From Candidatus Falkowbacteria bacterium (GTDB taxonomy: Bacteria; Patescibacteriota; Patescibacteriia; Patescibacteriales; UBA12075), in the NCBI GenBank assembly GCA_043801965.1, contig JAZDLN010000011.1:44511-108510 (forward strand): 64,000 nt of DNA. Direction: 5' to 3'. The notes beneath the pieces were generated by a model. It was not told the DNA's origin. It was given only the letters and a program-made list of their open reading frames with translations, and made no database searches. Every line of letters starts with the position of its first letter. The stretch's first letter is position 1. The position numbers and the translations under genes were made by a program. Below, one piece after another: positions 1,618 through 61,257 of this stretch.

Positions 1618-1622
1618 AATTG

Positions 1623-1759
1623 TGGGCGACACAAGAGTTTCCGCCCGGGGCGGATCCGCCTTTGGCGGAGAACTTGTGACCCCCGCAAATCCCGAAGCGT
1701 CGGGACACGGGGCAAGCTCTACGATGTCAATCCCGAAGCGTCGGGACTCTAACCAAAAA
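1623..1759 (-). pseudogene. decayed 3'-partial copy of tRNA-Val interrupted by three GC-rich hairpin insertions
   Basis: Segments tgggcgacacaagagtt / aacttgtgacc / tctacgatgtcaa / tctaaccaa are collinear with the intact tRNA-Val at 1790-1863. They are separated by 30-, 36- and 17-nt GC hairpins. The 5' acceptor/D strand is missing. Confidence 0.6.
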
Positions 1760-1789
1760 TACCCCGCTTGAAAACAGGGTATTTTTCTG

Positions 1790-1863
<74 letters not shown>

Positions 1864-1905
1864 CTTGAATTATATGATAAACAAAAAAAATAAAATTGTA
1901 AACAA

Positions 1906-1926
1906 GTGCGCCCAGATGGACTTGAA
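1906..1926 (-). repeat. exact 21-nt duplicate of the 3' end of tRNA-Ile (att-like scar)
   Basis: gtgcgcccagatggacttgaa at 1906-1926 equals 2084-2104. Confidence 0.6.
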
Positions 1927-2084
1927 GGGGCGGAAGCCCCACAACATCATTATACTCGTTTTTCGAGCGAAACATGCTGAATGTTTACATTCATGCTTTT
2001 TCTGCTTCTGTGTCTTGCTCAAAATGGTTCAAATCTCTGAACACACAAAATTCTGACGGCTCTGCGGGAGCCGCCATAATTTTG

Positions 2085-2158: not shown

Positions 2159-2196
2159 TTTTTTGCGATAAATATATATAAAATTGTTCCGATCTA

Positions 2197-2345
2197 TGCC
2201 TTTTGGACTTGCCCCGTCATCCGACGGGGCACCGGGCCGGATGACCCGGTGAACCATCGACCCCAGGCTTATGAGGCTTGTGCTCCCTGCCGGCAGGCGG
2301 GTAACCAACTGCCTGTCCCGCCAAAGCGAAGCGTCAACGGGGAGT
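2197..2345 (-). pseudogene. decayed CAU-anticodon paralog of the adjacent tRNA-Ile with three GC-rich insertions
   Basis: Core GAGCACAAGCCTCATAAGCCTGGGGTCGATGGTTC is near-identical to the tRNA-Ile(UAU) body. Insertions lie in the D region (30 and 17 nt) and T-loop (40 nt). The acceptor stem is no longer complementary. Confidence 0.55.
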
Positions 2346-2670
2346 TTATGGTTTCAAACTCTTAATCAATATAGCATAATTATCCTTTTTTTTCAAGAGT
2401 TAGGGTTTTTTAAAAAACAAGGCTATCGATTAATCCGAAATTTGTTCATGTTAATATTGACGAATAACTGCGGCGCCAACGGACTTTTTCCAGTCTTCTA
2501 AAATATCTTCTCTCTTTTGCCAGGCAAAATTCCGGAAAATATTTTAAAGTAGCTTCAACCCGAAGCCATGACGGCGGATTTTTGAAAAGCTGCATTATTA
2601 TTATACAAAAAATCCCTCAGATTTCAAGTGTCAAAGAATCCGAGGGATCAAGGTTCAAAAGTTCAAAAAA

Positions 2671-3315
2671 TTATAGCGCCAGTTGCGGGGCCACGAGACG
2701 AGGCCGGCGCACGGCGTTCCAGACGAGCGAGTTCTCAAGGCGAAGCACGTGGACATTGAGACGGCCGCCGGAATACAAGGCCACGTCGGCGACAAAAAAC
2801 TCTCCTTTGGATTGAAAGAAAAAGAATGTTCCGTATCCGTCGTCCCGAAGCCAATTACGGTGTTTCTTCACGGAGAGCTTGATCTGCGCCTGCGTGAAAC
2901 AAAGCCTCCGGATGTCCCCGTTGAGAGAACCGAACATATCCGCAAAAGTACCGTTTTTTACCATCTCATAAACGACAGCCTGCGTTTTGCCGGTTGCCGG
3001 TCCCGGTTCGTCCGCACCCCAGTTTTTAAAATCCGGGTCAATCCATGCGAACACATCGGTCGCATCCGCCAGAGTTTCGGTTCCATCGACTGCGTCAATG
3101 ATGAGTGTCTCGCCGCCGGAAACGAGCCTAAGAAAAGTTTCGCGGACCATGCTGATCCAACACTTTTCTTTGCGGAGAAACTTTTTTAATTCTCCCAGCC
3201 ACTCCCGGCCGCCTTCTCCTGATAATTTTTCCGCCAAATCGCAGATCGTTCCCAATGCTTCCATTGGGAGATCCACGATTTTCCGAACCACCGCACCGAG
3301 CATGTCTTTTGTCAT
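2671..3315 (-). CDS. hypothetical protein (GC-rich gene next to the tRNA cluster)
   Basis: 214-aa ORF. The many overlapping alternative-frame ORFs indicate locally high GC. No motif recognised. Confidence 0.55.
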   Translation of the reverse strand: MTKDMLGAVVRKIVDLPMEALGTICDLAEKLSGEGGREWLGELKKFLRKEKCWISMVRETFLRLVSGGETLIIDAVDGTETLADATDVFAWIDPDFKNWGADEPGPATGKTQAVVYEMVKNGTFADMFGSLNGDIRRLCFTQAQIKLSVKKHRNWLRDDGYGTFFFFQSKGEFFVADVALYSGGRLNVHVLRLENSLVWNAVRRPRLVAPQLAL

Positions 3316-6248: not shown

Positions 6249-6281
6249 AGAGACGAGGCATGCCTCGTCTCTGTGATTTTT
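6249..6281 (+). terminator. rho-independent terminator
   Basis: agagacgaggca/tgcctcgtctct perfect hairpin followed by gtgattttt. Confidence 0.7.
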
Positions 6282-6302: not shown

Positions 6303-6405
6303 TAAAGCGGCCAGGCAAGAAATTTTCGTCAGGAAAAACTTAGTTCTAGAACCGAATTTTTCCTAACAGAAAGATCCCCATGCTTGTCGTGCCTGTGCCG
6401 CTTTA
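6303..6405. other. ~100-nt rod-like nested palindrome (structured element of unknown role)
   Basis: Outer stem taaagcggccaggca / tgcctgtgccgcttta, middle stem aggaaaaa / tttttcct, apex gttctagaac. Confidence 0.35.
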
Positions 6406-6631: not shown

Positions 6632-7885
6632 TCAAAAAAGCTTCGTCTGCCCCCTTTCTTCGTCCGTAAAAATCCTGATCCGTCCGTATTGCCCATCAAA
6701 ACCAGGCTCGATCCGCAGCCGACCCTCCCTTACCCGGCGTATGCCTTCGACAACGGCGGGCGATAAACCCTTGGCTAAATTCCCGATCGGCTCATCAAGA
6801 AGAATGTTTATTTCATTGCTGTATTGCCCGATAATATTATTATATTCGGTTTGCACCTTGACGGACGTCCGGCTCTTTACCCCTAATACTTCAGCTATGA
6901 TCTTATCAAGTTCCACCAATTTCCTTGCTCCCGGCGCTCCAGCGGGCCTAAAACCTTCTTTCCGGTCGGCTAGCTCTTCCACCCGGTTAAGGACTCCGAC
7001 CACCAGCGGTTTTTTGCATTTAGGACAAATATTTTTATGCTTTTTCGTTTCGGCGGGCTTAAAGCGCACGCCGCAATCACGATGGCCATCGAGATGATAC
7101 ATGCCTTCCTCTGGATAAAACTCCAGCGTATAATCAAGATATGATTTATCCGTCTTTTTGTTTTTTATAACATCGTATAATTCGTCATAAGAAACCACGG
7201 CTAATTCGAAAACGTTGGCTTCGCGGGCGATGTTGGGGAGCGAATGGGCGTCTGAATTGGACAAAAGCGTAAAATTATCCAAGGCCGAAAGCCGCCAGTT
7301 CATTTCCGGATCGGAAGACAAACCGGTTTCGTAAGCGTAAATATCTTTCGTATATTCTCCGAAGCATTCTTCCATAGTGTCGAAGCCGGACTTTGACCCG
7401 AAAACCGAAAACCAAGGCGTCCAGATATGCGCCGGATAAATCAAAAATTTCGGATGAATAGAAAGGCACAATTTCATCAACTCTTCCGCGCCCATACCGA
7501 GTATCGGCCGGCCGTCCGAACGGATATTATAATGCTTATCGAGATATTTATTTAATTCCGCCGCGGCCGCGATAGAGGGCGCCTGAACGACGACATGGAT
7601 CCGCCGACAACGGTCGTTCTTTTTATAGATCAAAGCCAACTCCGTGGACAAAATAAATTTTATCTTATCGTCCGGCATTGCCTTCAATTTATATAATCCG
7701 CTGTTATTTATCTCTTCCAGTTCGTTTTTTATGGAACTGAACCAATCCGGAAAAGTAAAATCCCCGGTGGCGATGATATCGACGCCTTTAACCCGGCAGG
7801 TTTTATCAATATTAGCCAACGTCAAATCCCGCGAGCAAGCCCGCGAGTATTTCGAATGGATATGCAGATCGGCTATCTGGCGCAT
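6632..7885 (-). CDS. PHP-domain endonuclease Q-like protein (TIGR00375-type)
   Basis: N-terminal ADLHIHSKYSRACS PHP motif, internal zinc ribbon CPKCKKPLVVGV, ~417 aa as in EndoQ. Confidence 0.65.
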   Translation of the reverse strand: MRQIADLHIHSKYSRACSRDLTLANIDKTCRVKGVDIIATGDFTFPDWFSSIKNELEEINNSGLYKLKAMPDDKIKFILSTELALIYKKNDRCRRIHVVVQAPSIAAAAELNKYLDKHYNIRSDGRPILGMGAEELMKLCLSIHPKFLIYPAHIWTPWFSVFGSKSGFDTMEECFGEYTKDIYAYETGLSSDPEMNWRLSALDNFTLLSNSDAHSLPNIAREANVFELAVVSYDELYDVIKNKKTDKSYLDYTLEFYPEEGMYHLDGHRDCGVRFKPAETKKHKNICPKCKKPLVVGVLNRVEELADRKEGFRPAGAPGARKLVELDKIIAEVLGVKSRTSVKVQTEYNNIIGQYSNEINILLDEPIGNLAKGLSPAVVEGIRRVREGRLRIEPGFDGQYGRIRIFTDEERGQTKLF

Positions 7886-16265: not shown

Positions 16266-16322
16266 GGTATTTAGCGATAAAATACGACCGCTAAATACTA
16301 AATACAAAATACTAAATACTTA
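16266..16322. repeat. AT-rich hairpin followed by tandem degenerate 7-mers (TAAATAC type)
   Basis: gtatttagcg...cgctaaatac then taaatac aaaatac taaatac. Confidence 0.6.
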
Positions 16323-16331
16323 ATTTAAATA

Positions 16332-16940: not shown

Positions 16941-17016
16941 ACAATCAAATAATTTAATCCCGCCGCTGCGGGACGAGCGTCAATTCGCCGTAGCATATTC
17001 TTGAAAAATGTTCATT

Positions 17017-18061: not shown

Positions 18062-18206
18062 AAAGAAAAACAAGATACAAGTTACAAGTTACAAGTTACA
18101 AACAAATTTCAACTCTCAATATACAATAACCAAACTGATATTATACTTGTGATTTGTAATTTGAAATTTGTTTGTGTCCTTGTGTCTTGTCTCTTGTTTC
18201 TTACAG
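18062..18206. repeat. long imperfect palindrome whose arms are tandem degenerate 7-mers (CAAGTTA / TTGTnnC)
   Basis: Left arm caagata caagtta caagtta caagtta caaacaa atttcaa. Right arm ttgaaat ttgtttg tgtcctt gtgtctt gtctctt. Core caaacaaatttcaa / ttgaaatttgtttg is perfectly complementary. Confidence 0.75.
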
Positions 18207-20117: not shown

Positions 20118-20217
20118 CAAGCCCTCTGCCCCGGCTTACTTCGTTCGCCGACCCCTCTCCGGTACCGGAGAGGGGTGCCGAGCGCAAGCGAGGCGGGGAG
20201 AGGGTTTGTTTAGAAAA
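20118..20217. repeat. GC-rich ~100-nt palindromic element, copy 1 (GGAGAGGGG family)
   Basis: aagccctctgccccggcttacttcgttcgccgacccctctccggtaccggagaggggtgccgagcgcaagcgaggcggggagagggttt. Self-complementary about the ggtacc centre. Confidence 0.8.
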
Positions 20218-20222
20218 TAAAT

Positions 20223-20585
20223 TTATCTATCCATTTCTCTTCTTATTTTCCCTATTACCGCCTGAAGGTCATCTATAACTTCGGCATTGGTAAACCTCAT
20301 AATTCTATATCCCTGCCCGATAAAAAATTCTTGCCTAAATTCATCATACTCCTTGATTTCCTCTTTATTATGTATTCCTCCGTCAACCTCAATAATCAAT
20401 CTTTTGGAAAAACAACAAAAATCAACGATATACCGATAAGAGCCGAAACAAAACGGAACCTGTCGTTTGAATTTTACGTCTAAAAAATTATTTCTAACCC
20501 TTTGCCACAGTAATTTTTCCGCTGGTGTCATTTTCTTTCGTAAAATTTTTGCGATATCGTATATGTTGGTCGGATATTTATTCAT
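20223..20585 (-). CDS. DUF559 (Vsr/restriction-endonuclease-like fold) protein
   Basis: LRKKMTPAEKLLWQRVRN...FKRQVPFGSYRYIVDFCC...LIIEVDGGIH...D..R...F...GYRIMRFTNAEV, a typical DUF559 pattern. Confidence 0.8.
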   Translation of the reverse strand: MNKYPTNIYDIAKILRKKMTPAEKLLWQRVRNNFLDVKFKRQVPFCFGSYRYIVDFCCFSKRLIIEVDGGIHNKEEIKEYDEFRQEFFIGQGYRIMRFTNAEVIDDLQAVIGKIRREMDR

Positions 20586-20632: not shown

Positions 20633-20732
20633 GAGCCCTCTCCCCCGGCTCTCTTCGTTCGCCGACCCCTCTCCCTGCCTACCGGTAGGCAGGCGGTACC
20701 GGAGAGGGGTGCCGAGCGCAAGCGAGGCGGGG
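20633..20732. repeat. GC-rich palindromic element, copy 2 (same orientation as copy 1, carries a nested insertion)
   Basis: Matches copy 1 arm for arm except for 20 extra nt at the apex. Confidence 0.8.
20675..20694. repeat. 20-nt mini-palindrome nested in the apex of copy 2
   Basis: ctgcctaccggtaggcag(gc). An 18-nt perfect palindrome inserted between ctcc and ggtacc, relative to copy 1. Confidence 0.75.
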
Positions 20733-20769
20733 AGAGGGTTTTGTTTAACCGGAGAGGGGGCAAGCGTCT

Positions 20770-28634: not shown

Positions 28635-31702
<3,068 letters not shown>

Positions 31703-31867: not shown

Positions 31868-31975
31868 AGCTGGCAATTAACTACTAATAAAATTAGTTGT
31901 TAATTGTTAACTGTCAATTGTCCCGGCCAAAGGCCGATCCCTGCCTACCGGCAGGCAGGCGCCTTTGGCGGAAAA
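31868..31975. repeat. AT-rich CAATTAA-type palindrome followed by nested GC mini-hairpins
   Basis: ggcaattaactactaataaaattagttgttaattgttaactgtcaattg, then ggccaaaggcc...ctgcctaccggcaggcagg...gcctttggcgg. Confidence 0.6.
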
Positions 31976-32120
31976 TGTTAATGTTGTTCAAGAAGTAGCA
32001 AAAAACCGCCTAAGCGGTTTGATAACAAGCCAGAAAGTCGGTTTAATGTTATCAAACGCTTTTTAATCTGATCATTATGCTATTCTTCATAAACATTTTT
32101 ATCTAAATTAACGTATTTAT

Positions 32121-32148: not shown

Positions 32149-32334
32149 GACCGCCGTGGCCCTTAAAATGAATATTTTGGCATATTTTATTTTATTTAAT
32201 ATAAGTCATTTTATTAAATTCATTTCCCGGGCGTTTATCGCCGCGATATCGGTCATCAACATGATTTATTATTTTAAACCACCACCGGCCTTGCCGGTCG
32301 CACGGACTTAATCCCCAAGAATCTTATCGCTCTT

Positions 32335-32497
32335 TGTCATCCCGGGGCTTTAGTCTTCGAGCGAAGCGAGAAGCTAAAGAACCCGGGATCCAGGGTTTCG
32401 CGGTACTTCCATGATATTTCCGTTGACGAGTTAATTATCGCCCAACCCTGGATTCCGGATATTTTTTCCTCCGCTTGGAAAAAATTCCGGAATGACA
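32335..32497. mobile_element. MITE-like element with TGTCAT termini and subterminal hairpins
   Basis: tgtcatcccggg...cccgggatccaggg on the left and ccctggattccgga...tccggaatgaca on the right are inverted relative to each other. Confidence 0.4.
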
Positions 32498-32590
32498 AAA
32501 AACCGACTTCGCCGGAGGATATCTTAAAAAATTAACACAAATATTCAGGTAGGACATTTCTATAAAACCTTTACACATAAACAATACTTC

Positions 32591-36224: not shown

Positions 36225-36315
36225 TACCCTCTCCCCCGGCTCGCTGCGTTCGCCGACCCCTCTCCGGTACCGGAGAGGGGAGCCGAAGCGAAAGCGGGGG
36301 CAGGGAGAGGGTTTG
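36225..36315. repeat. GC-rich palindromic element, copy 3 (solo)
   Basis: ataccctctcccccggctcgctgcgttcgccgacccctctccggtaccggagaggggagccgaagcgaaagcgggggcagggagagggtttgt. Confidence 0.8.
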
Positions 36316-36348: not shown

Positions 36349-36428
36349 AAACCCTCCCCAGACTTGGGGAGGGTGCGATCCTGAGCCGCGCCGACGGAGA
36401 GCGGGTGGGGGAAGAGCGGGGAGGGGTG
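36349..36428. repeat. degenerate GC-rich hairpin cluster related to the GGAGAGGGG family
   Basis: aaaccctcccca-gact-tggggagggt, then gacggagagcgggtgggggaagagcggggaggggtg. Confidence 0.5.
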
Positions 36429-36641
36429 AATAAATAAAAACCGCAAAATTATCTGGAATTTCGGTTTAAAGCCGAACATGAAAGAATATTCGGCCGGGAA
36501 GATTCATGCCGGGCGCTGATCATCGGATATGACAGGAAGTCCAGCAATTACCGGGATAAAAAACTTTTGGCTTATACTTTAATCAACCTAAGATACTTTT
36601 GCGGTAAGTCGCAATGACTTCAATTTAAAAAACATATCACA

Positions 36642-37985
36642 TTACAGAAATAATTTTTTGGCTTTTTCGGTTATATAATAATATATAGTTTTCCCCTCTT
36701 TGTTTTGCTCAAGAAATCCAAGCTTTAATAATTCTTTCAAGTCCTTTATGGCTGTTTTATTAGCTACCTGAAAAACATTCATGTGTATCCTTATACTGGT
36801 CTTCTCGCTTGGCTCCCCGTATAAAAATTGCAGTAATTTTACCTGTCTTTCATTAAAACCATGGCTCATTTTACCGGCTCTGCCCATAGTCGAATTTATA
36901 GCCGCTTGCTTGTCCAGATAATCCTTAAATTCCTCGACGGCCTGCTCTATTTTTTTCGTATGGTAGTCGATAAAATACGTTAAATCATTATCGTCCTGCT
37001 CGCTATAAACATAAGCCATGGTATATTGGACCGGGGATTTTTTGATTATTTTCGAAATAGGCAAATAAGCGAAGGCCCAGTATTTCTTCTGGAGCAGGTA
37101 CCAATAAAAAAGCAATCTGGCTATTCTGCCGTTACCGTCAGTAAACGGGTGTAAATATCCAATCCAAAAATGCAGCATAATAGCCTTTATGACCGGATGG
37201 ACGAAAAGCGTTTCCGATTCATCGTTGACGAATTTTATGAATCTGTTCAATTCTTTTTTAACAAACGGCATTTCAGGGGCTTTGTGGTAGACGATACCGC
37301 TTGCCTTGTCAGTAACGAATATTTCGTCCTGCTCGCTCCTGAGCTTCGGTTTTTCACCATCCGGAGTCAGGGTATCCTTCGTTATCATTCCATGCAATTC
37401 CATTAACAAATCCAGATCCATGTGCCTGTCTTTATAATCCTCTTCGATCAATTTCATGGTGGTGTAATTATTCAATATCATCTGCTCCGATTCATTTTTG
37501 GGCTTTCTGCCCTCTTTTAAAAATTGTTTGGCTATTTTTCTGCTCGTGCTCGCTCCTTCGAGCTGGGAAGAGGCGATCGCCTCTTCCATTATCCCCCTGG
37601 AAATAAGCCTTTGCTTTTCCTGTTTGTCCGTCTCTGCTTTGGAAGAAAATAACTCACCACCGGTGTTTAAATCGATTTCATGAAAAAATTTTTCCAACTT
37701 CGGCAGTTTTAACCACGTAAAAATTTTTCCGTTTTCTGATTTTATCGGACTCGGAAATGATCTCGCTTTTCTCATGAGTTTTAATATCTGCCATAACTCT
37801 TCCCGGGAATATCCCCGCGGAATCGGCTCCTTATATTTTAATTTATCCCAGGAAATGTACGGATTAAAAGTGTTTTCCAAAAATAAAAAAGAATCACCCT
37901 GCTGACCGTTAAAAAATCTGGAAATTACTTTTTCCTTATTTACCTTTGATAAATCAGGTTTTTTTATTGAATAAAATTCCGCCAT
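36642..37985 (-). CDS. Fic/DOC family protein with C-terminal wHTH
   Basis: Fido motif HPFTDGNGRIARLL. Confidence 0.85.
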   Translation of the reverse strand: MAEFYSIKKPDLSKVNKEKVISRFFNGQQGDSFLFLENTFNPYISWDKLKYKEPIPRGYSREELWQILKLMRKARSFPSPIKSENGKIFTWLKLPKLEKFFHEIDLNTGGELFSSKAETDKQEKQRLISRGIMEEAIASSQLEGASTSRKIAKQFLKEGRKPKNESEQMILNNYTTMKLIEEDYKDRHMDLDLLMELHGMITKDTLTPDGEKPKLRSEQDEIFVTDKASGIVYHKAPEMPFVKKELNRFIKFVNDESETLFVHPVIKAIMLHFWIGYLHPFTDGNGRIARLLFYWYLLQKKYWAFAYLPISKIIKKSPVQYTMAYVYSEQDDNDLTYFIDYHTKKIEQAVEEFKDYLDKQAAINSTMGRAGKMSHGFNERQVKLLQFLYGEPSEKTSIRIHMNVFQVANKTAIKDLKELLKLGFLEQNKEGKTIYYYITEKAKKLFL

Positions 37986-43115: not shown

Positions 43116-44312
43116 TCAATAAATGAACATCGCGTCGCCGTAACTATAGAAACGGTATAAAGACTTTACGGCATGAGCATAGGCTCTGTCAATGTTGTCT
43201 TTGCCCGCGAAAGCCGAAACCAGCATTAAAAGAGTCGATTTCGGCAGATGAAAATTCGTGATCATGACATCGACGATCTTGAACTCGTAGCCGGGATAAA
43301 TAAATATGTCTACGTTTTTTTGAAAACCCTTAAATTGTTTTTCGTATTGAGTGTTTTGAAATTGATTATTGATTGGATATTGGATATTGGATATTGGATA
43401 TTCGGAAACCATAGCCTCAAGCGTGCGGGTCGAAGTGGTGCCTACGGTAATAATGCGTCGTCCCTGATGCTTCGCTAAATAAACGTTAGCCATGGTTTCG
43501 GCCGATACCTCGACCCATTCCGCATGCATTTTGTGATCAGTGATGATTTCCGCTTTGACCGGCGCGAAGGTGCCCAGACCCACGTGCAGCGTGACATATT
43601 CTATTTGTACGCCCTTCGCTTTTATCTTCTCCATCAATTCCGGCGTGAAATGCAGTCCGGCGGTCGGCGCCGCCACCGATCCGGTCTTATTTTTATCCGC
43701 GTAAATTGTTTGATACGATTTCTCGTCATTAATCAATTCGTTACGCGTTACGCGTTTTGCGTTACGCGAAATGTACGGTGGCAGCGGCGTCTGCCCGATT
43801 TTCTCCACGATCTTCATCATCTCCTCGCCCGCCTTATTGAATTCAACGGTAAAAGTACCGTCGCCGTTATTTTTTATTGCCAGCGCCTTAAGGCCGCCGT
43901 CAAATTCCACTTCTAAACCCTCTTTGCGCCGATGTCCCCCAACCAGGCAAATCCAGCGATCTCCCCTCGCCCGCGGCGAAGCCGGGGGAGAGGGGTCGGG
44001 GGTGAGGGCATGCACCAGAAAAACCTCAACACGCCCGCCCGTACCCTTCCGCTCCCCGATCAAGCGCGCTGGAAAAACTTTGGAATTATTCAAAACCAAA
44101 ACATCGCCGGTTCGCAAATAACCGACGATATCATAAAAATACTTGTCTTCAATTCCAGGCGCTCCCACCCCCTCTGTATCTCCCCCTCCGGCAGGGGGAG
44201 AAAAACGGCGTAATACCAAAAGCCGCGAGTGGTCCCGCGGTTCTACCGGCTCCTGAGCGATAAGCTCTTTGGGCAAATTGTAATCAAAATCGCTTAACTT
44301 CACATAACGCAT
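43116..44312 (-). CDS. queA: S-adenosylmethionine:tRNA ribosyltransferase-isomerase, carrying four in-frame repeat-derived insertions
   Basis: LSDFDYNLPKELIAQEP, PLPPYI, VAAPTAGLHFT, VTLHVGLGTF, ITVGTTS and NFHLPKSTLLMLVSAF...FYSYGDAMFI motifs. 398 aa versus the ~350 typical. Confidence 0.9.
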   Translation of the reverse strand: MRYVKLSDFDYNLPKELIAQEPVEPRDHSRLLVLRRFSPPAGGGDTEGVGAPGIEDKYFYDIVGYLRTGDVLVLNNSKVFPARLIGERKGTGGRVEVFLVHALTPDPSPPASPRARGDRWICLVGGHRRKEGLEVEFDGGLKALAIKNNGDGTFTVEFNKAGEEMMKIVEKIGQTPLPPYISRNAKRVTRNELINDEKSYQTIYADKNKTGSVAAPTAGLHFTPELMEKIKAKGVQIEYVTLHVGLGTFAPVKAEIITDHKMHAEWVEVSAETMANVYLAKHQGRRIITVGTTSTRTLEAMVSEYPISNIQYPINNQFQNTQYEKQFKGFQKNVDIFIYPGYEFKIVDVMITNFHLPKSTLLMLVSAFAGKDNIDRAYAHAVKSLYRFYSYGDAMFIY

Positions 44313-44370
44313 AGCGCATAACGCATAACGCTCTTTGTGCGTTACGCGTTATGCGTTCCACGTTACGCGT
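44303..44370. repeat. palindrome of TAACGCA / TGCGTTA 7-mers spanning the stop of one gene and the start of queA
   Basis: cataacgc atagcgca taacgca taacgc - tctttg - tgcgtta cgcgtta tgcgttc cacgtta cgcgt. Confidence 0.7.
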
Positions 44371-44935: not shown

Positions 44936-44948
44936 AAATTATTTTTTC

Positions 44949-45071
44949 TGTCATTTCGACTGGAGCGGAGCGGAAGGAGAAATCTTTAATATGCCGGAAA
45001 CCTTAATAATAATGTTCAACTGATACACAGAGTATTATAGATCTCTCCTCCCGCGGGTCGTCGAGATGACA
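44949..45071. mobile_element. MITE-like element with 12-bp TGTCATYTCGAC terminal inverted repeats
   Basis: tgtcatttcgac...gtcgagatgaca. Internal ggagaaatc / gatctctcc. Confidence 0.45.
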
Positions 45072-45078
45072 AAAACGT

Positions 45079-45374: not shown

Positions 45375-45512
45375 TAATTATCAATTTTCAATTTACAGTG
45401 AATTTCCAATTTTTTAATTTTTCAAATACCGGCTTATCGGCTTATGGCAATAAATAATTTAAATTGAAAATTTGATCATTGATTGAAAATTGTAAATTGA
45501 AAATTGTAAATT
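45375..45512. repeat. palindrome with arms of degenerate 7-mers (AATTTNC / GAAAATT)
   Basis: aattatc aattttc aatttac ... gaaaatt gtaaatt gaaaatt gtaaatt. The centre carries ccggcttatcggcttatgg. Confidence 0.75.
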
Positions 45513-45558
45513 ATAACCTGTTTCTTTTTTGAATATAACAAAAATATAAACCGGGGTA

Positions 45559-48777: not shown

Positions 48778-48791
48778 GTTTTTATCATTGT

Positions 48792-48892
48792 ACTTGCGTC
48801 CTACTTGCCCGCCGAAGTCCCGACGCTTCGGGACGCAGGTGGGTCCATTGTCCGCCAAAGGAGGATCAGCCTCTGGCTGAAACGACGAGAGC
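48792..48892 (-). pseudogene. tRNA-Arg 5'-half copy 1 (positions 1-31) with 30- and 40-nt hairpin insertions in the D arm
   Basis: acttgcgtccta[40 nt]tccattg[30 nt]aacgacgagagc is collinear with 48749-48777. Confidence 0.6.
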
Positions 48893-48912
48893 ATAAAATA
48901 TTATATTGTAAA

Positions 48913-49008
48913 TGCGTCCTACTTGCCCGCCGAAGTCCCGACGCTTCGGGACGCAGGCGGGTCCATTGTCCGTCAAAGGCGGGGAGCCTCTGGCTGAAAC
49001 GACGAGAG
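48913..49008 (-). pseudogene. tRNA-Arg 5'-half copy 2, tandem duplicate of copy 1
   Basis: Same architecture about 120 nt further on, with a few substitutions (ggtggg to ggcggg, gaggatcagcc to gcggggagcc). Confidence 0.6.
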
Positions 49009-49155
49009 TGTTGTTTATTTTTTTGCTTGCGCCCTGCCCGACCGCATAAAGGCGTAAAAAACGAATATGCTCCCATATTACATGTTTTGACGGAATTTGT
49101 CCAGTGTCGGAAATATGCTATAATAAGAATAATCTAAGTAAATTAAATAAAAAAT

Positions 49156-50226: not shown

Positions 50227-51804
50227 TTAACTTTGTATCAGGCCGCTTATCGGAGGAAAAGGACCGATATCACGGATAATACAACGCGTGGCGCTCCAGG
50301 TCTGGATGATGGCTTCGGGCGTACCGATGCCGGCGCCGCGCGGGTCGCCGCAGGGTCCGAACCAATGGTTTTGCGGAGCGCCGGTCGTGCGAGCCCGGAG
50401 ACCGGCGTAGGTCGTGCCGTTAACTGTCTCTCCCAGGATTTTACCGATAAACTCCTGATCATTAGAGACTACGGCCGCCGTCAGGTGGTTTTTCATCCGC
50501 TCGCAGGCAAACATGATCATATCCAATTCGGACTCTTTGTAGGTAGTCACGACCTGGACCGGTCCGAAAACCTCAGTGGTCACAAGTTTAAATTTGTCGG
50601 GATAAATAATCTCAACCAGAGGAACGTACACGGCCGTCGGCTCAATGGCGCCGTAGCAGGCCGGGATGCTGTGGCCCCTTAGGGGTTTACCGCCGAACAG
50701 GATTTTTACTCCCGAAATAGCGGCCAGCTTGCTGATATGCTCAAGCATCGCTTCGGTCGTCCGGGTTAGAACCGGCCCGATTGTCAAGTTTTCCAGACTT
50801 CTTTGCCCGGCAAGCGCCTTGAGACGGGCGAAAAAAACGTTCGGGCCGCCGGCTAATTTCTCCGGCACGAATAAGATTGATTGGGCGGAACATTTCTGTC
50901 CGCTGGCCGCGTAGGCGTCCTGGTCGCATTGCCAGGCGATATAGGGAAGCGCTTCCGCTGGGATATCGGCGCCTAAAATCTTCCAGTCGAACCCGGCGTC
51001 TTCTATTCGGATCTTGCCGTTAAGCATTTTGGCCAGTTTTTCGGCGACCGTGCTTGAACCGGTAAACTGAGTCAGACGCAAATCATCTTTGGCTTCGCGC
51101 AATAGATTATTCATGGTTTTGCCGTCGCAGTGTATTAAATCCACGTCCGTCATGGGCAGGCCGCAGAAATGGAGCAGGCGTAAAAACTGTTCGATTACCA
51201 CCGAAACCTTGGTCGCGGCCTTGACCAGCGGACGGTTGCCCATGTATAGGGCGCCCATCATATGAAGCGCCGGAATCTCCATCGGAAAATTAAAAGGCGC
51301 GATGATCGCGACCGGACCATAGGGCCAGCGGAAATGCTGCGGCTGTTGCCCGGCGTGATCCCCAGGGTCAATGCTGCCGCGCGCCAAAAACCGAACCTGG
51401 TCGCCGCTAAAATTTTTTAAAAACTGGGCGGTAACCGTTACTTCGCCGAGGCACTGCTTATATGACTTGGGCATGACCGACTGGATCAGGCGGGCAAAAT
51501 AATCCGCTACGGCCGCGTCTTCGAGCGTCGCGGCGACGCGGAAAGAAACCTGCGCCAGCATAAGATAGCGCTCCACGTTCTTAAAGGGGTTATGCAGTCC
51601 GCTTTTGGGGCAGGATTTAAGCCCATTAATAAACGACCTAAGCTCGGAAACCCCGGTATTAGGATATTTAAGCATGGGCTCGCCGTTCAAAGGATTTACG
51701 AGCGTGGCGTAGCGGGCCGCACCCGTCCATTTTCCGTTAACCAGGTTTTGAAGCTTTTGTTTTCTTGACTCCAGATCTTTTAAAAAATCACCGATCTTAT
51801 TCAT
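50227..51804 (-). CDS. aldehyde dehydrogenase family protein, 1-pyrroline-5-carboxylate dehydrogenase-like
   Basis: FTGSSTVAEKL and catalytic GQKCSAQS motifs. 525 aa. Locally GC-rich, with many overlapping frame ORFs. Confidence 0.7.
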   Translation of the reverse strand: MNKIGDFLKDLESRKQKLQNLVNGKWTGAARYATLVNPLNGEPMLKYPNTGVSELRSFINGLKSCPKSGLHNPFKNVERYLMLAQVSFRVAATLEDAAVADYFARLIQSVMPKSYKQCLGEVTVTAQFLKNFSGDQVRFLARGSIDPGDHAGQQPQHFRWPYGPVAIIAPFNFPMEIPALHMMGALYMGNRPLVKAATKVSVVIEQFLRLLHFCGLPMTDVDLIHCDGKTMNNLLREAKDDLRLTQFTGSSTVAEKLAKMLNGKIRIEDAGFDWKILGADIPAEALPYIAWQCDQDAYAASGQKCSAQSILFVPEKLAGGPNVFFARLKALAGQRSLENLTIGPVLTRTTEAMLEHISKLAAISGVKILFGGKPLRGHSIPACYGAIEPTAVYVPLVEIIYPDKFKLVTTEVFGPVQVVTTYKESELDMIMFACERMKNHLTAAVVSNDQEFIGKILGETVNGTTYAGLRARTTGAPQNHWFGPCGDPRGAGIGTPEAIIQTWSATRCIIRDIGPFPPISGLIQS

Positions 51805-57220: not shown

Positions 57221-57289
57221 TCAATAAAACCGAACTGCCCCTTGAAATATTTTATGATAAAAATATATGTTTATTTTTGCCGATAAAGA

Positions 57290-57422
57290 TTAATTTTCAA
57301 TTATCAATGACCAATTTTCAATTTTCGTGTTTTTCGCTCAATTACATAGTTATGCCGGATAGTAAATCGTTAAAAATTATTAATTTAAAAATTGATTGAA
57401 AATTGTTAAATTGATAATTTGG
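57290..57422. repeat. 7-mer-armed AT-rich palindrome between the two hydrogenase genes
   Basis: aattttc aattatc aatgacc aattttc aattttc ... aaaaatt gattgaa aattgtt aaattga taattt. Confidence 0.7.
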
Positions 57423-57499
57423 AAGTTCATTAAAATACGGATAACATGAAAAAAATATCATGCATTTAAAAAACATATAAAAATCTTCAAATAACTCAT

Positions 57500-59616: not shown

Positions 59617-61257
59617 CTAAAAATGCAAGTTTTTAACCATGTACGTCTCTTTCAGCCGATATCCTAGTTTCCGGTAATAACCGCGCACCCCCACTCCGGC
59701 GATGACCGCCATCTTGCCGTACCCGGCCGCGCGCGCGATCTTTTCGGCTTCGGCCATTAATTTTTTCCCCAATCCGGCATGCTGGATTTTCTTGCCTTTC
59801 CCGACCGGCACCAGCTCACCGTAAACATGAAGCTCCCGCACTAACGCTGAATCATTAATACTATCATATGTTTCGTGTTTCATGTTCTGCGAAGACAGAC
59901 GCAGGCGGCAAAAACCGAGCAGATTATTTCTATCGTCTTTATTTTTTGATATAGCCTGTATAAAACACTCTTGTCCGCCCGAGGCTTCATATTTTATAAT
60001 TTCCAATTTCGGATTTCTAATTTCTAATTTCCCGCCTTTTATTTCACGGCATCGAATACAGTCGCATTTCACCCCCCGTTGTTGCATTACCTGTCGTAAA
60101 TTAGTAGTCAGGTTTCCGGCCACGATCGATTCCCCCGGAATATCCCGGATCAGGCGGATGATGCGCACGTATGACGGAACGATATTTTTGCATTTTATAA
60201 TCAATTCGCGCAAAACTTTGTCGGAATAAGGTTTGTATTTCCCTTGTTTCCACCAGCGGTATAATAAACTCCCCCTGGTAACTACGGTCGGATAGAATTT
60301 TATCTGATCCGGCTGGAAACGTCCGTCGTTGAATAATCGTTTGAACATACGAATGTCCCCGGCGGGAGTGGAGCCCGGCAAACCGGGCATAACGTGATAA
60401 GTGACTTTAAAGCCGAAATCTTTAAGAAGCGCGGTCGCCCGGGCGATCGCCCCTACGCCATGTCCGCGTTTATTAAGCTTAAGTATCTTATCGTCAATGG
60501 CTTGTACTCCCATCTCAACGCGGGTGCATCCCAATTCCCGCATCTCCCGGAGTTCTTTCTCGTCTATATAGTCCGGGCGCGTTTCCAGAGTAATCCCGAT
60601 TATCCTGTACTTGGCGTCTTCATTCTTTATCTGCTCCTTTTTTAGAGCATCTTTTAGTTTATCGATATTTTCGTTACGCGTTTTTCGTTTTGCGTTTTGT
60701 GCTTCATGCTTAATGTTTCCTGTTTCATGGAATTCATTCGCTCCCCGGAAGCATTCTTTGATATACCAGTATTTATATTTTTCCGGCAAGACCGACCAAG
60801 TGCCTCCGATCACGATCAATTCGATCTTGGTCGGTTCATGGCCGTTGGCGACAAGCGCTTTAAGCCGGTCGCGGACCTGAACGTACGGATCGTAGCGGCA
60901 GCGGATCGCCCGCATTACGGCCGGTTCGTTCGATAAATAGCTTTGAGGAACGTTTTTTTCGGTTGGGCAATACGCGCATTTGCCGGGGCATTCGTAAGGC
61001 TCCGTTAAAACCGCCACCGGCGCGATTCCTGATAAAGTCCTTATAGATCGTTTTCGCAACAGTCGCCGAACCTCCGGAAGCGGCTTTAGGCTTAGACTAT
61101 TTAACGCTTTAAGTATCGAAGAATTTTCCAAAATCCCGATATGGTGTTTTTTCGCTAATTTTCTTTTAATCAGCATAAGCTCGTTGCCGTCCTTAATATC
61201 CGAAGACAGGAGCTCTTCAACCGCTTTTAATTCCGTTTTATTTAATTTCATCGTCAT
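59617..61257 (-). CDS. Elp3-like radical SAM + GNAT acetyltransferase
   Basis: Radical SAM CPGKCAYCP cluster motif, TRVEMGVQ, and a C-terminal GNAT QHAGLGKKLMAEAEKIA. 546 aa. Confidence 0.85.
   Translation of the reverse strand: MTMKLNKTELKAVEELLSSDIKDGNELMLIKRKLAKKHHIGILENSSILKALNSLSLKPLPEVRRLLRKRSIRTLSGIAPVAVLTEPYECPGKCAYCPTEKNVPQSYLSNEPAVMRAIRCRYDPYVQVRDRLKALVANGHEPTKIELIVIGGTWSVLPEKYKYWYIKECFRGANEFHETGNIKHEAQNAKRKTRNENIDKLKDALKKEQIKNEDAKYRIIGITLETRPDYIDEKELREMRELGCTRVEMGVQAIDDKILKLNKRGHGVGAIARATALLKDFGFKVTYHVMPGLPGSTPAGDIRMFKRLFNDGRFQPDQIKFYPTVVTRGSLLYRWWKQGKYKPYSDKVLRELIIKCKNIVPSYVRIIRLIRDIPGESIVAGNLTTNLRQVMQQRGVKCDCIRCREIKGGKLEIRNPKLEIIKYEASGGQECFIQAISKNKDDRNNLLGFCRLRLSSQNMKHETYDSINDSALVRELHVYGELVPVGKGKKIQHAGLGKKLMAEAEKIARAAGYGKMAVIAGVGVRGYYRKLGYRLKETYMVKNLHF

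Follow-up and report, generated by a model that had tools for sequence, protein, structure and literature searches.

Ultra-small GC-rich palindromes inserted at hairpin loops in a Candidatus Falkowbacteria chromosome segment

Results

We conclude with moderate confidence that a 64-kb stretch of DNA (hereafter, the window) has been colonised by several families of GC-rich palindromic insertion elements, ultra-small and non-autonomous, that prefer hairpin loops. This bacterial chromosome segment carries glmS, queA, ruvB, rnc, nusB, a NiFe hydrogenase, 23S and 5S rRNA and three tRNA genes, and its GlmS shows 100% identity to a protein from a Candidatus Falkowbacteria metagenome-assembled genome (candidate phyla radiation, CPR; Patescibacteria). 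The inner palindromes of its nested hairpins are true insertions, as demonstrated by empty paralogues, by absences or different inner hairpins in a sister species, and by a clean 20-nt indel in coding sequence. Hairpin apexes are enriched as targets, with an asymmetry toward the 3' side. Between sister species there is turnover of sites, the same elements are found across phyla, and one host module is associated with genes for DUF559 nucleases.

Element counts for the source genome cover the 64-kb window. The elements are GC-rich, 12–20 nt long, and belong to the families CCTGCC..GGCAGG (three copies per 64 kb), TCCCGA-AGCG-TCGGGA (four copies), TCCGCC..GGCGGA and CCCCGT..ACGGGG. As the intergenic DNA is AT-rich (G+C ~20–35%), short GC-rich hairpins are conspicuous in it. 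Six perfect palindromes whose arms are 10 nt or longer were found in the window, compared with 0.23 in dinucleotide shuffles (shuffle maximum 1), a ~25-fold excess, and the chance expectation in window pattern searches for the elements cited here was 0–0.01 matches. A literature search on the hairpin sequences themselves gave no match. For comparison, we used a sister species (RIFOXYB2_FULL_47_14 and related contigs) with ~88% DNA identity, collinear across the compared regions.

A 20-nt palindrome in one of three host hairpins

A ~90-nt GC-rich quasi-palindrome is present in three near-identical copies, at 20122–20207, 20636–20741 and 36227–36312. In a three-way MAFFT alignment, the copy at 20636 differed from the other two in one way only: a 20-nt block, CCTGCCTACCGGTAGGCAGG, placed at 20674–20693 between CCCCTCTC and CGGTACC. 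A sequence-only reading made earlier had noticed 20 extra nucleotides in this copy, which the alignment with two empty copies confirmed. The coordinates given there, 20675–20694, refer to this same insertion and are offset by a single ambiguous C, and the palindrome called 18 nt long is a perfect 20-nt palindrome in the MAFFT placement. It had also been put exactly at the apex; the site is near the apex, 4 nt 5' of the host dyad and two base pairs beneath the predicted GTAC loop. No target-site duplication was detected at this insert by comparison with the two empty copies. Hairpins of the type CCCCTCTCC..GGAGAGGGG at six further loci all had loops of 4–6 nt, where the window copy has 26 nt. 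The features concerned are as follows.

20674..20693, no strand assigned: perfect 20-nt palindrome CCTGCCTACCGGTAGGCAGG, CCTGCC family (alignment with two empty copies, palindrome scan)
20636..20741, plus strand: host hairpin copy 2 (filled), directly upstream of the DUF559 gene (alignment); missing in the sister species
20122..20207, plus strand: host hairpin copy 1, empty apex CCGGTACCGG, directly downstream of the DUF559 gene (alignment); missing in the sister species
20223..20585, minus strand: DUF559 / Vsr-like PD-(D/E)XK endonuclease gene, 120 aa, between two host modules (Pfam and PDB matches)
36227..36312, plus strand: host hairpin copy 3 (empty apex), a solo module without a nearby nuclease gene (alignment)
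36351..36432, plus strand: second GC-rich module type, ACCCTCCCC-loop-GGGGAGGGT plus GGGGAGGGG boxes

Nested hairpins and coding insertions elsewhere

The palindrome at 20674–20693 recurs with one mismatch at 31940–31959, between GCCAAAGGC and GCCTTTGGC, and a shorter relative, CCTGCCGGCAGG, lies at a decayed tRNA D-loop (2286–2297); both relatives had been pointed out from the sequence (31925–31972 and 2285–2301) and were confirmed. A related composite holding a CCTGCC palindrome is present at locus L161:532-580, where the outer stem differs from that of 31926–31977 by compensatory changes. The composite at 31926–31977 can also be read as three adjacent mini-hairpins. Folding upheld the hairpin-in-hairpin nesting proposed for 1681–1712, 48809–48843 and 48928–48962. 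The element at 6303–6405, named in the same context, is real as a long interrupted hairpin; it is AT-rich, and no link to the GC-rich families was found.

31926..31977, plus strand: 52-nt composite in the 23S leader, GCCAAAGGC / GATC / CCTGCCTACCGGCAGGCAGG (31940–31959) / C / GCCTTTGGC
16958..16973, no strand assigned: solitary mini-hairpin TCCCGC-CGCT-GCGGGA, with the loop of the TCCCGA family and a compensatory stem change
6303..6405, plus strand: long interrupted AT-rich hairpin (fold z = -4.7)

Protein-coding sequences outside the window have also received these elements. In the metagenomic contigs L158 and L161, CCTGCCTGCCGGCAGGCAGG is a clean 20-nt indel in a DUF559 coding sequence when compared with four homologues, causing a frameshift without duplication. 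The CCTGCC palindrome was further detected inside a DNA ligase open reading frame (ORF; L157), and its family in two Flavobacteriaceae genomes (L097, L100).

Mini-hairpins in decayed tRNA copies

Decayed full or partial copies adjoin the intact genes for tRNA-Val, tRNA-Ile(UAU) and tRNA-Arg, and differ from them mainly by inserted mini-hairpins.

1620..1760, minus strand: decayed tRNA-Val copy, downstream of the real tRNA-Val, with a T-loop double hairpin (1640–1669), a variable-loop nested hairpin (1681–1712, inner 1690–1705) and TCCCGAAGCGTCGGGA at 1731–1746 in place of the anticodon-stem 3' strand
1905..1935, minus strand: tRNA-Ile 3' fragment with hairpin GGGGCGGAAGCCCC (1922–1935) at the T-loop edge
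2196..2361, minus strand: decayed tRNA-Ile copy with two T-loop hairpins (2210–2251), CCTGCCGGCAGG(CGGG) at the D-loop end (2286–2301) and a further GC insert (2311–2340)
48785..49010, minus strand: two tandem 118-nt copies of the tRNA-Arg 5' half and upstream region, with nested hairpins at 48809–48843 and 48928–48962 (inner GTCCCGACGCTTCGGGAC) and further D-loop mini-hairpins

Comparing real with decayed tRNAs, we located nine insertion junctions. The T-loop accounts for three, the D-loop or its edge for four and the variable loop for one; at the ninth, a stem strand is replaced just 3' of the anticodon loop. None of the nine lies mid-stem. With ~47% of junctions qualifying, a rough binomial estimate, not computed with a tool, gives p ~0.01 for 8/9 junctions in loops or loop edges.

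The tRNA-Ile with anticodon UAU (2084–2158) is conserved in the sister species; this tRNA is uncommon in bacteria. Tandem decayed copies of tRNA ends stand beside intact tRNAs in both CPR and Flavobacteriaceae (L034:6800-7100, L080:1200-1450), and in those Flavobacteriaceae copies the T-loop is replaced by the 16-nt TCCCGAAGCGTCGGGA. In the decayed copies of the window, TCCCGAAGCGTCGGGA sits elsewhere, and the T-loop holds a double hairpin of another kind. The tRNA cases are mirrored downstream of the sister glmS (L002:11830-11900): between the true end of glmS and a decayed second copy of its final ~40 nt stands CCCCGTCGGATGACGGGG, a hairpin also present at window 2212–2229.

Loop preference of a second family across phyla

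The window has four occurrences of a 17-mer, TCCCGAAGCGTCGGGAC, which was also found in more than 118 stretches of species-representative genomes, against ~17 expected by chance (our own estimate from the collection size), mostly in cultured Flavobacteriaceae among the matches listed, and also in Patescibacteria, Nitrospirae, Thermodesulfovibrionia, KSB1 and Acidobacteriota. One Flavobacterium chromosome holds several copies. The three matches in viral contigs are at chance level, so a viral origin is not supported. Clustering of ORFs within 1.5 kb of the 17-mer at 118 loci revealed no recurrent gene family and a single DUF559 match. In Gillisia and Flavobacterium agri, the 17-mer occupies the T-loop of tandem decayed tRNA 3'-end copies directly after an intact tRNA, the architecture seen in the decayed copies of the window.

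We then examined the placement of 119 distinct copies; these counts hold among the matches listed. Forty copies (34%) lie between complementary arms of at least 5 bp, compared with 9.3 ± 2.8 (maximum 18) in 300 flank permutations. Nineteen cases have arms of 6 bp or more, and in 16 of these the element directly adjoins the 3' arm. The left offset is the larger one in 12 cases and the right in one. Together with the tRNA junctions (8/9), these counts support the earlier proposal of preferential insertion at apexes, which is not exclusive, as coding targets outside hairpins are also used.

Paired empty and filled hosts showed that the 16-mer TCCCGAAGCGTCGGGA takes the place of 5–7 nt spanning the 3' side of the loop and the upper end of the 3' arm. 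With hp denoting the hairpin, such pairs were TTCTGAAacaagTTCAGAA and TTCTGAAAC-hp-CAGAA within the Gillisia marina genome, CCTCACAGGTTTTgAAAACCTGTGAGG and CCTCACAGGTTTTA-hp-CTGTGAGG across Flavobacteriaceae genomes, and, for the T-loop, GGTTCGAATCC and GGTTC-hp-C in tandem tRNA 3'-end copies of Gillisia and Flavobacterium. The window copy at 1731–1746 has the same 3'-edge replacement signature.

Two further, widespread hairpin types, GTCATTCCG...CGGAATCCAG and GTCAT(T/C)TCGA...AGA(A/G)ATC, were observed in the window (32330–32500, 44936–45078), at L036:4020-4080, and in Nitrospirae, KSB1 and Flavobacteriaceae loci; in Nitrospirae and KSB1 they are outer hosts of the 16-mer.

Turnover of sites between sister species

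The presence/absence check that had been proposed for sister genomes gave a divided answer: some sites are polymorphic and others are shared. The sister lacks the entire 52-nt composite at 31926–31977 and the 166-nt decayed tRNA-Ile copy at 2196–2361. Two features are common to both species and are therefore old: the tRNA-Ile fragment bearing GGGGCGGAAGCCCC, and the double hairpin in the T-loop of the tRNA-Val copy, which differs by one substitution. A shared outer hairpin, CCCCGCA..TGCGGGG, holds TCCCGAAGCGTCGGGA at its apex in the window and GCCGCTGACGCGGC in the sister. Because one outer hairpin holds different inner hairpins in two species, hairpin apexes are hot spots with turnover.

The sister also has inserts of its own. 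One is nested, CCCCGT..TTCCGATCGGAA..ACGGGG; another is a 24-nt in-frame palindromic insert in the orthologue (L165/L163) of the MJ0043_C-family gene at 6632–7885, at window ~7150. This insert forms a 29-nt palindrome, GTAGAGACGCCCCG-G-CGGGGCGTCTCTAC, whose right arm partly covers coding sequence that was already there. The motif of its arms, AGAGACG/CGTCTCT, recurs as the building unit of a 24-nt palindrome at window 6249–6272.

The host hairpin as part of a DUF559 cassette

The protein encoded at 20223–20585 belongs to the DUF559 family (Pfam PF04480, E = 1e-31, 109.3 bits against a gathering cut-off of 20.6) and also matches PDB 3HRL (E = 2e-14). At the orthologous site downstream of glmS, the sister lacks both modules and the DUF559 gene and has a different GC-rich nested module instead. 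Scanning metagenomes with the DUF559 protein gave 35 loci, whose G+C contents range from 35% to 66%. At most metagenomic DUF559 loci, inverted modules of the form (CCCTCTCC-loop-GGAGAGGG)(GGGTGAGGGG) ... (CCCCTCACCC)(CCCTCTCC-loop-GGAGAGGG) bracket the gene. Flanking inverted repeats with a score of at least 16 were detected at 18/29 metagenomic DUF559 loci and in 2/444 control geometries, and the Flavobacterium glaciei DUF559 gene has flanks of the same kind (L049:1860-2380). Given the flanking position, the sister absence and these 18/29 loci, we identify the host hairpin as the terminal module of a DUF559 cassette and 36227–36312 as a solo module. The neighbouring module at 36351–36432 is related to two others, one at the sister glmS site and one lying 3' of a DUF559 gene in Flavobacterium.

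From this arrangement, hairpin-bracketed DUF559 looks like a REPtron-like mobile nuclease cassette without an earlier description; our literature search found no description of hairpin repeats flanking DUF559 genes. In Flavobacterium glaciei (L049:24-3485), the cassette and its hairpin flanks lie within a single uninterrupted 1153-aa ORF and may be an in-frame insertion into a host gene.

Sequences of the same kind are read in frame within queA, and the TPDPSPPASPRARGD peptide is missing from solved QueA structures.

43960..44010, minus strand: DUF559-module-like CCCTCACCCC + CCCCTCTCCCCCGG..., in frame within queA, encoding TPDPSPPASPRARGD
44179..44201, minus strand: GC hairpin TCTCCCCCT-CCGGC-AGGGGGAGA, in frame within queA, insert SPPAGGGD...

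Compared with solved QueA structures, queA (43116–44312) shows four inserts, all in frame; two consist of GC hairpin or DUF559-module sequence, and the other two of AT-rich heptamer-type repeats (43351–43386, 43739–43768) that also occur in intergenic DNA.

Discussion

How the elements may move

In the mechanism that we favour, the elements would be copied to new sites without target-site duplication. They would land preferentially at or beside the loop of an existing DNA hairpin, mostly at the 3' edge of the loop on the element-bearing strand, and repeated landings would build hairpin-in-hairpin structures and clusters. One such insertion struck the apex region of the ~90-nt DUF559-cassette module. 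The target is presumably read as a folded single strand, and a trans-acting enzyme may supply or copy the palindrome. The 3'-arm asymmetry fits a single-strand, structure-guided step. The structure-directed insertion into single-stranded DNA suggested by the sequence-only reading would agree with this asymmetry.

Several points weigh against this mechanism. No transposase, REP-associated tyrosine transposase (RAYT; REP, repetitive extragenic palindrome) or reverse transcriptase was found among the ~45 window proteins scanned. DUF559 is the sole candidate nuclease in the window, and one DUF559 gene is disrupted by a palindrome. Insertions also occur in non-hairpin coding DNA (the ligase of L157, the DUF559 gene of L158/L161), so structure is a preference and no requirement. 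About two-thirds of the 119 copies among the matches listed are not between detectable arms, and the taxonomic breakdown of the 17-mer, limited to those matches, is biased. Some composites appear to move or persist as units (31926–31977; L161). As the 29-nt sister palindrome is partly made from flanking sequence, outer stems might sometimes arise together with the insert. No recent strain-level presence/absence was seen, the closest relative compared being 88% identical.

A bolder version of the proposal is possible, and we offer it tentatively as something we would not expect to hold in full: a cross-phylum pool of 16–20-nt "micro-transposons", strand-specific for the 3' edge of loops (including tRNA T-loops), shared word for word by CPR, Flavobacteriaceae and others, and driven by a structure-specific enzyme that is possibly DUF559-linked. 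If so, micro-transposons would be the smallest mobile DNAs in bacteria and would explain Russian-doll hairpins, decorated decayed tRNAs and entry into proteins. They might also enter rRNA helix tips, and DUF559 cassettes would represent a new class of mobile nuclease gene.

Alternative explanations

Insertion might instead be near-random, with selection in compact AT-rich genomes sparing only insertions in loops, pseudogenes and tolerant protein loops. We regard this as doubtful. It would explain why coding insertions are in frame or in an already dispensable gene and why the intact tRNA genes of the window are free of hairpins while the decayed copies are full of them. However, decayed tRNAs are presumably neutral and still avoid mid-stem positions, with 8/9 junctions in loops or edges. 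AT-rich spacer should be equally neutral, yet 34% of copies among the matches listed lie between complementary arms, and selection of this kind does not predict the 3'-arm asymmetry. A pure survival filter is thus less likely, and it probably contributes in coding regions, as with the in-frame GC modules of queA.

A second alternative, which we consider unlikely, is a specific form of our favoured mechanism that names the enzyme: DUF559 or another nuclease would cut a hairpin or cruciform near its loop, and repair would capture or copy a palindrome, sometimes losing bases. The replacement of 5–7 nt at the loop edge by the 16-mer is what such cut-and-patch events predict, but the insert at 20674–20693 came without a deletion. 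The host of that insert is a DUF559 flanking module, and DUF559 genes are regularly flanked by GC hairpin modules; against this, DUF559 is near the 17-mer in only 1/118 loci among the matches listed, and a DUF559 gene is itself a victim of the palindrome. We know of no biochemical activity described for the DUF559 family, and as the responsible enzyme it is a candidate by association. DUF559 has been placed in the Vsr clade together with a homing endonuclease (PMC3424549), and DUF559 genes are enriched among predicted inversion targets (PMC9881135), both of which would suit a nuclease-made target.

It is improbable that the palindromes were built in place by fold-back priming or intrastrand template switching, with nothing moving. 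Several elements are perfect zero-loop palindromes, which suggests a symmetric origin at the DNA level; the sister 24-nt insert makes its 29-nt palindrome with adjacent sequence, and the insert centre TACCGGTA resembles the host apex CCGGTACCGG. However, the same 16–20-nt sequences are found at unrelated sites and in different phyla, which local fold-back cannot account for, and the arms are not copied from local flanks.

Selection of nested hairpins as functional structured RNAs or terminators with modular tips, without insertion, is very improbable: compensatory changes (in the terminator after tRNA-Ile, and in the 31926–31977 outer stem compared with L161) and a similar hairpin on 23S helix tips speak for it, but an Rfam scan of the window and three hairpin-bearing loci found rRNA and tRNA only, and the elements occur in both orientations, frameshift coding sequences, lie in pseudogenes and are present or absent between sister species. 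GC skew puts the window on one replichore, where the TCCCGA hairpin has both orientations (a small sample).

Comparison with known repeats

The sequence-only reading had taken the nested pattern to be undescribed, which does not hold, since nesting of tiny or palindromic repeats is already known from small dispersed repeats (SDRs) and REPs. What is new is that the elements live in a CPR bacterium, that they are shared word for word with Flavobacteriaceae, that they leave a 3'-edge replacement signature (including at tRNA T-loops), and that the host hairpin is the flanking module of a DUF559 cassette. SDR1–8 of the Nostocaceae, according to Elhai and colleagues (2008), are dispersed cyanobacterial elements of 21–27 nt that nest within copies of themselves, some of them hairpin-forming; they are reportedly considered mobile, with no enzyme known, and confined to one cyanobacterial subgroup. 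The likeness in small size, nesting and hairpins is one of behaviour only. The host here is a CPR bacterium, not a cyanobacterium, and the elements are common to CPR and Flavobacteriaceae, whereas SDRs belong to one subgroup. The elements here are also 12–20 nt long, some are zero-loop perfect palindromes, and they land at the 3' edge of loops. SDR5 is reported to insert at the cyanobacterial palindrome HIP1. A link to HIP1 was rejected for the window, where GCGATCGC occurs 5 times against 2 expected and is not enriched.

REPs inserted inside palindromes have been reported (PMC3733652, section 7), and some REPs occur in frame within genes, a DNA ligase gene among them (PMC3733652; PMC3116915). 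Like REPs and their paired forms (REPINs), the elements described here are short, multi-copy, GC-rich palindromic repeats, often paired, inside palindromes and in frame in genes. Their length of 12–20 nt is slightly under the stated 20–40 bp, and their stems are 6–10 bp, where REPs with the CGTC tag have stems of 8–9 bp with AT-first pairs (PMC3733652; PMC3116915). We rejected membership among REPs, as there is no conserved unpaired GTAG/CGTC tag and no RAYT among the ~45 window proteins. In the flanks of the 119 copies among the matches listed, the commonest left trinucleotide was TTC (14/119), and CGTC occurred only within the hairpin. A REPtron, a gene flanked by its own repeats, parallels the DUF559 cassette, with a PD-(D/E)XK nuclease here in place of a Y1 transposase.

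Assignment to miniature inverted-repeat transposable elements (MITEs) was rejected because clean junctions have no target-site duplication and the size is far under that of MITEs. Rickettsia palindromic elements (RPEs) are palindromic selfish repeats of ~100–150 bp found in frame in protein genes and in RNA genes of Rickettsia and relatives. In-frame inserts are a shared trait (queA, the sister MJ0043_C-family gene, the L157 ligase gene), whereas the units here measure 12–20 nt, or ~50–90 nt for composite modules. RPE membership was rejected, with units of 20–50 nt against 100–150 bp and with unrelated sequence and host. Yeast mitochondrial GC clusters (PMC4478555), double-hairpin elements and sponge repetitive hairpin elements (RHEs) share GC-rich hairpins, an AT-rich genome and presence/absence polymorphism with our elements. 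They are organellar and 30–50 nt long; merging and shuffling of palindromic clusters have been discussed for the yeast ones, among which GC42 has an AG target-site duplication (PMC4478555), where none was seen here.

The behaviour inferred here is that of IS200/IS605 elements, integron attC sites and HUH Rep proteins, which act on folded single strands, are strand-specific and leave no target duplication. IS200/IS605 elements need subterminal hairpins, a fixed target tetranucleotide and a TnpA gene. Their derivatives, palindrome-associated transposable elements (PATEs), have imperfect subterminal hairpins at each end and insert 3' of a fixed tetra- or pentanucleotide. An origin as PATEs was rejected, as left flanks are heterogeneous, no TnpA is encoded in the window and the unit is far below known minimal IS200/IS605 derivatives in size. 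The Vsr-like EDxHD homing endonuclease I-Bth0305I shares a fold clade with DUF559, and the DUF559 cassette is an indel between sister genomes; the cassette differs in having hairpin inverted-repeat flanks and not lying within an intron, and no homing site in a target gene was identified for it.

If movement by recognition of hairpin loops is true, it would set a lower size limit for mobile DNA and make structure, not sequence, the basis of targeting. It would also explain nested repeats, expanded tRNA remnants and in-frame peptide inserts in the very small genomes of CPR bacteria. Identical elements in CPR and cultivable Flavobacterium make the question experimentally tractable, with filled and empty sites that can be tracked, and the hairpin flanking of DUF559 genes suggests a testable role for a widespread domain, as a mobile or a structure-specific nuclease. 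For annotation, such elements make spurious ORFs, break genes and disturb assemblies.

Other features of the window

Within the 23S gene (minus strand) there are three copies of the motif CCCGA-GCAA-UCGGG, which has a GNRA loop. Two occurrences (29358–29375 and 29753–29770) cap helices shorter than the Rfam consensus; the third (31453–31468) was identified by sequence match only. The motif is also present in the sister 23S gene and could reflect convergent minimisation or the same hairpin-capping process. At window ~30303–30322, the 23S gene has a 19-nt hairpin where the sister (L002:3779-3890) has a ~90-nt AT-rich hairpin expansion.

A GC-rich ORF of 214 aa (2671–3315, minus strand) gave no match in Pfam; it lies in a 755-nt block that adjoins the tRNA remnants, is missing in the sister and may be a small island. 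The gene at 50227–51804 encodes an aldehyde dehydrogenase resembling pyrroline-5-carboxylate (P5C) dehydrogenase, about 60–62% identical to plant ALDH12A1; no sister orthologue exceeds 70% identity. The Fic-domain gene contains a perfect 22-nt palindrome, GGAAGAGGCGATCGCCTCTTCC (37566–37587).

Upstream of many genes, we observed heptamer-like tandem repeats (caagtta, aaatact, attgaaa, CGTTACG), located at 18085–18115, 16290–16330, 45440–45520, 57280–57440, 44313–44362 and 60672–60701. SDRs are reported by Elhai to be often embedded in heptamer repeats.

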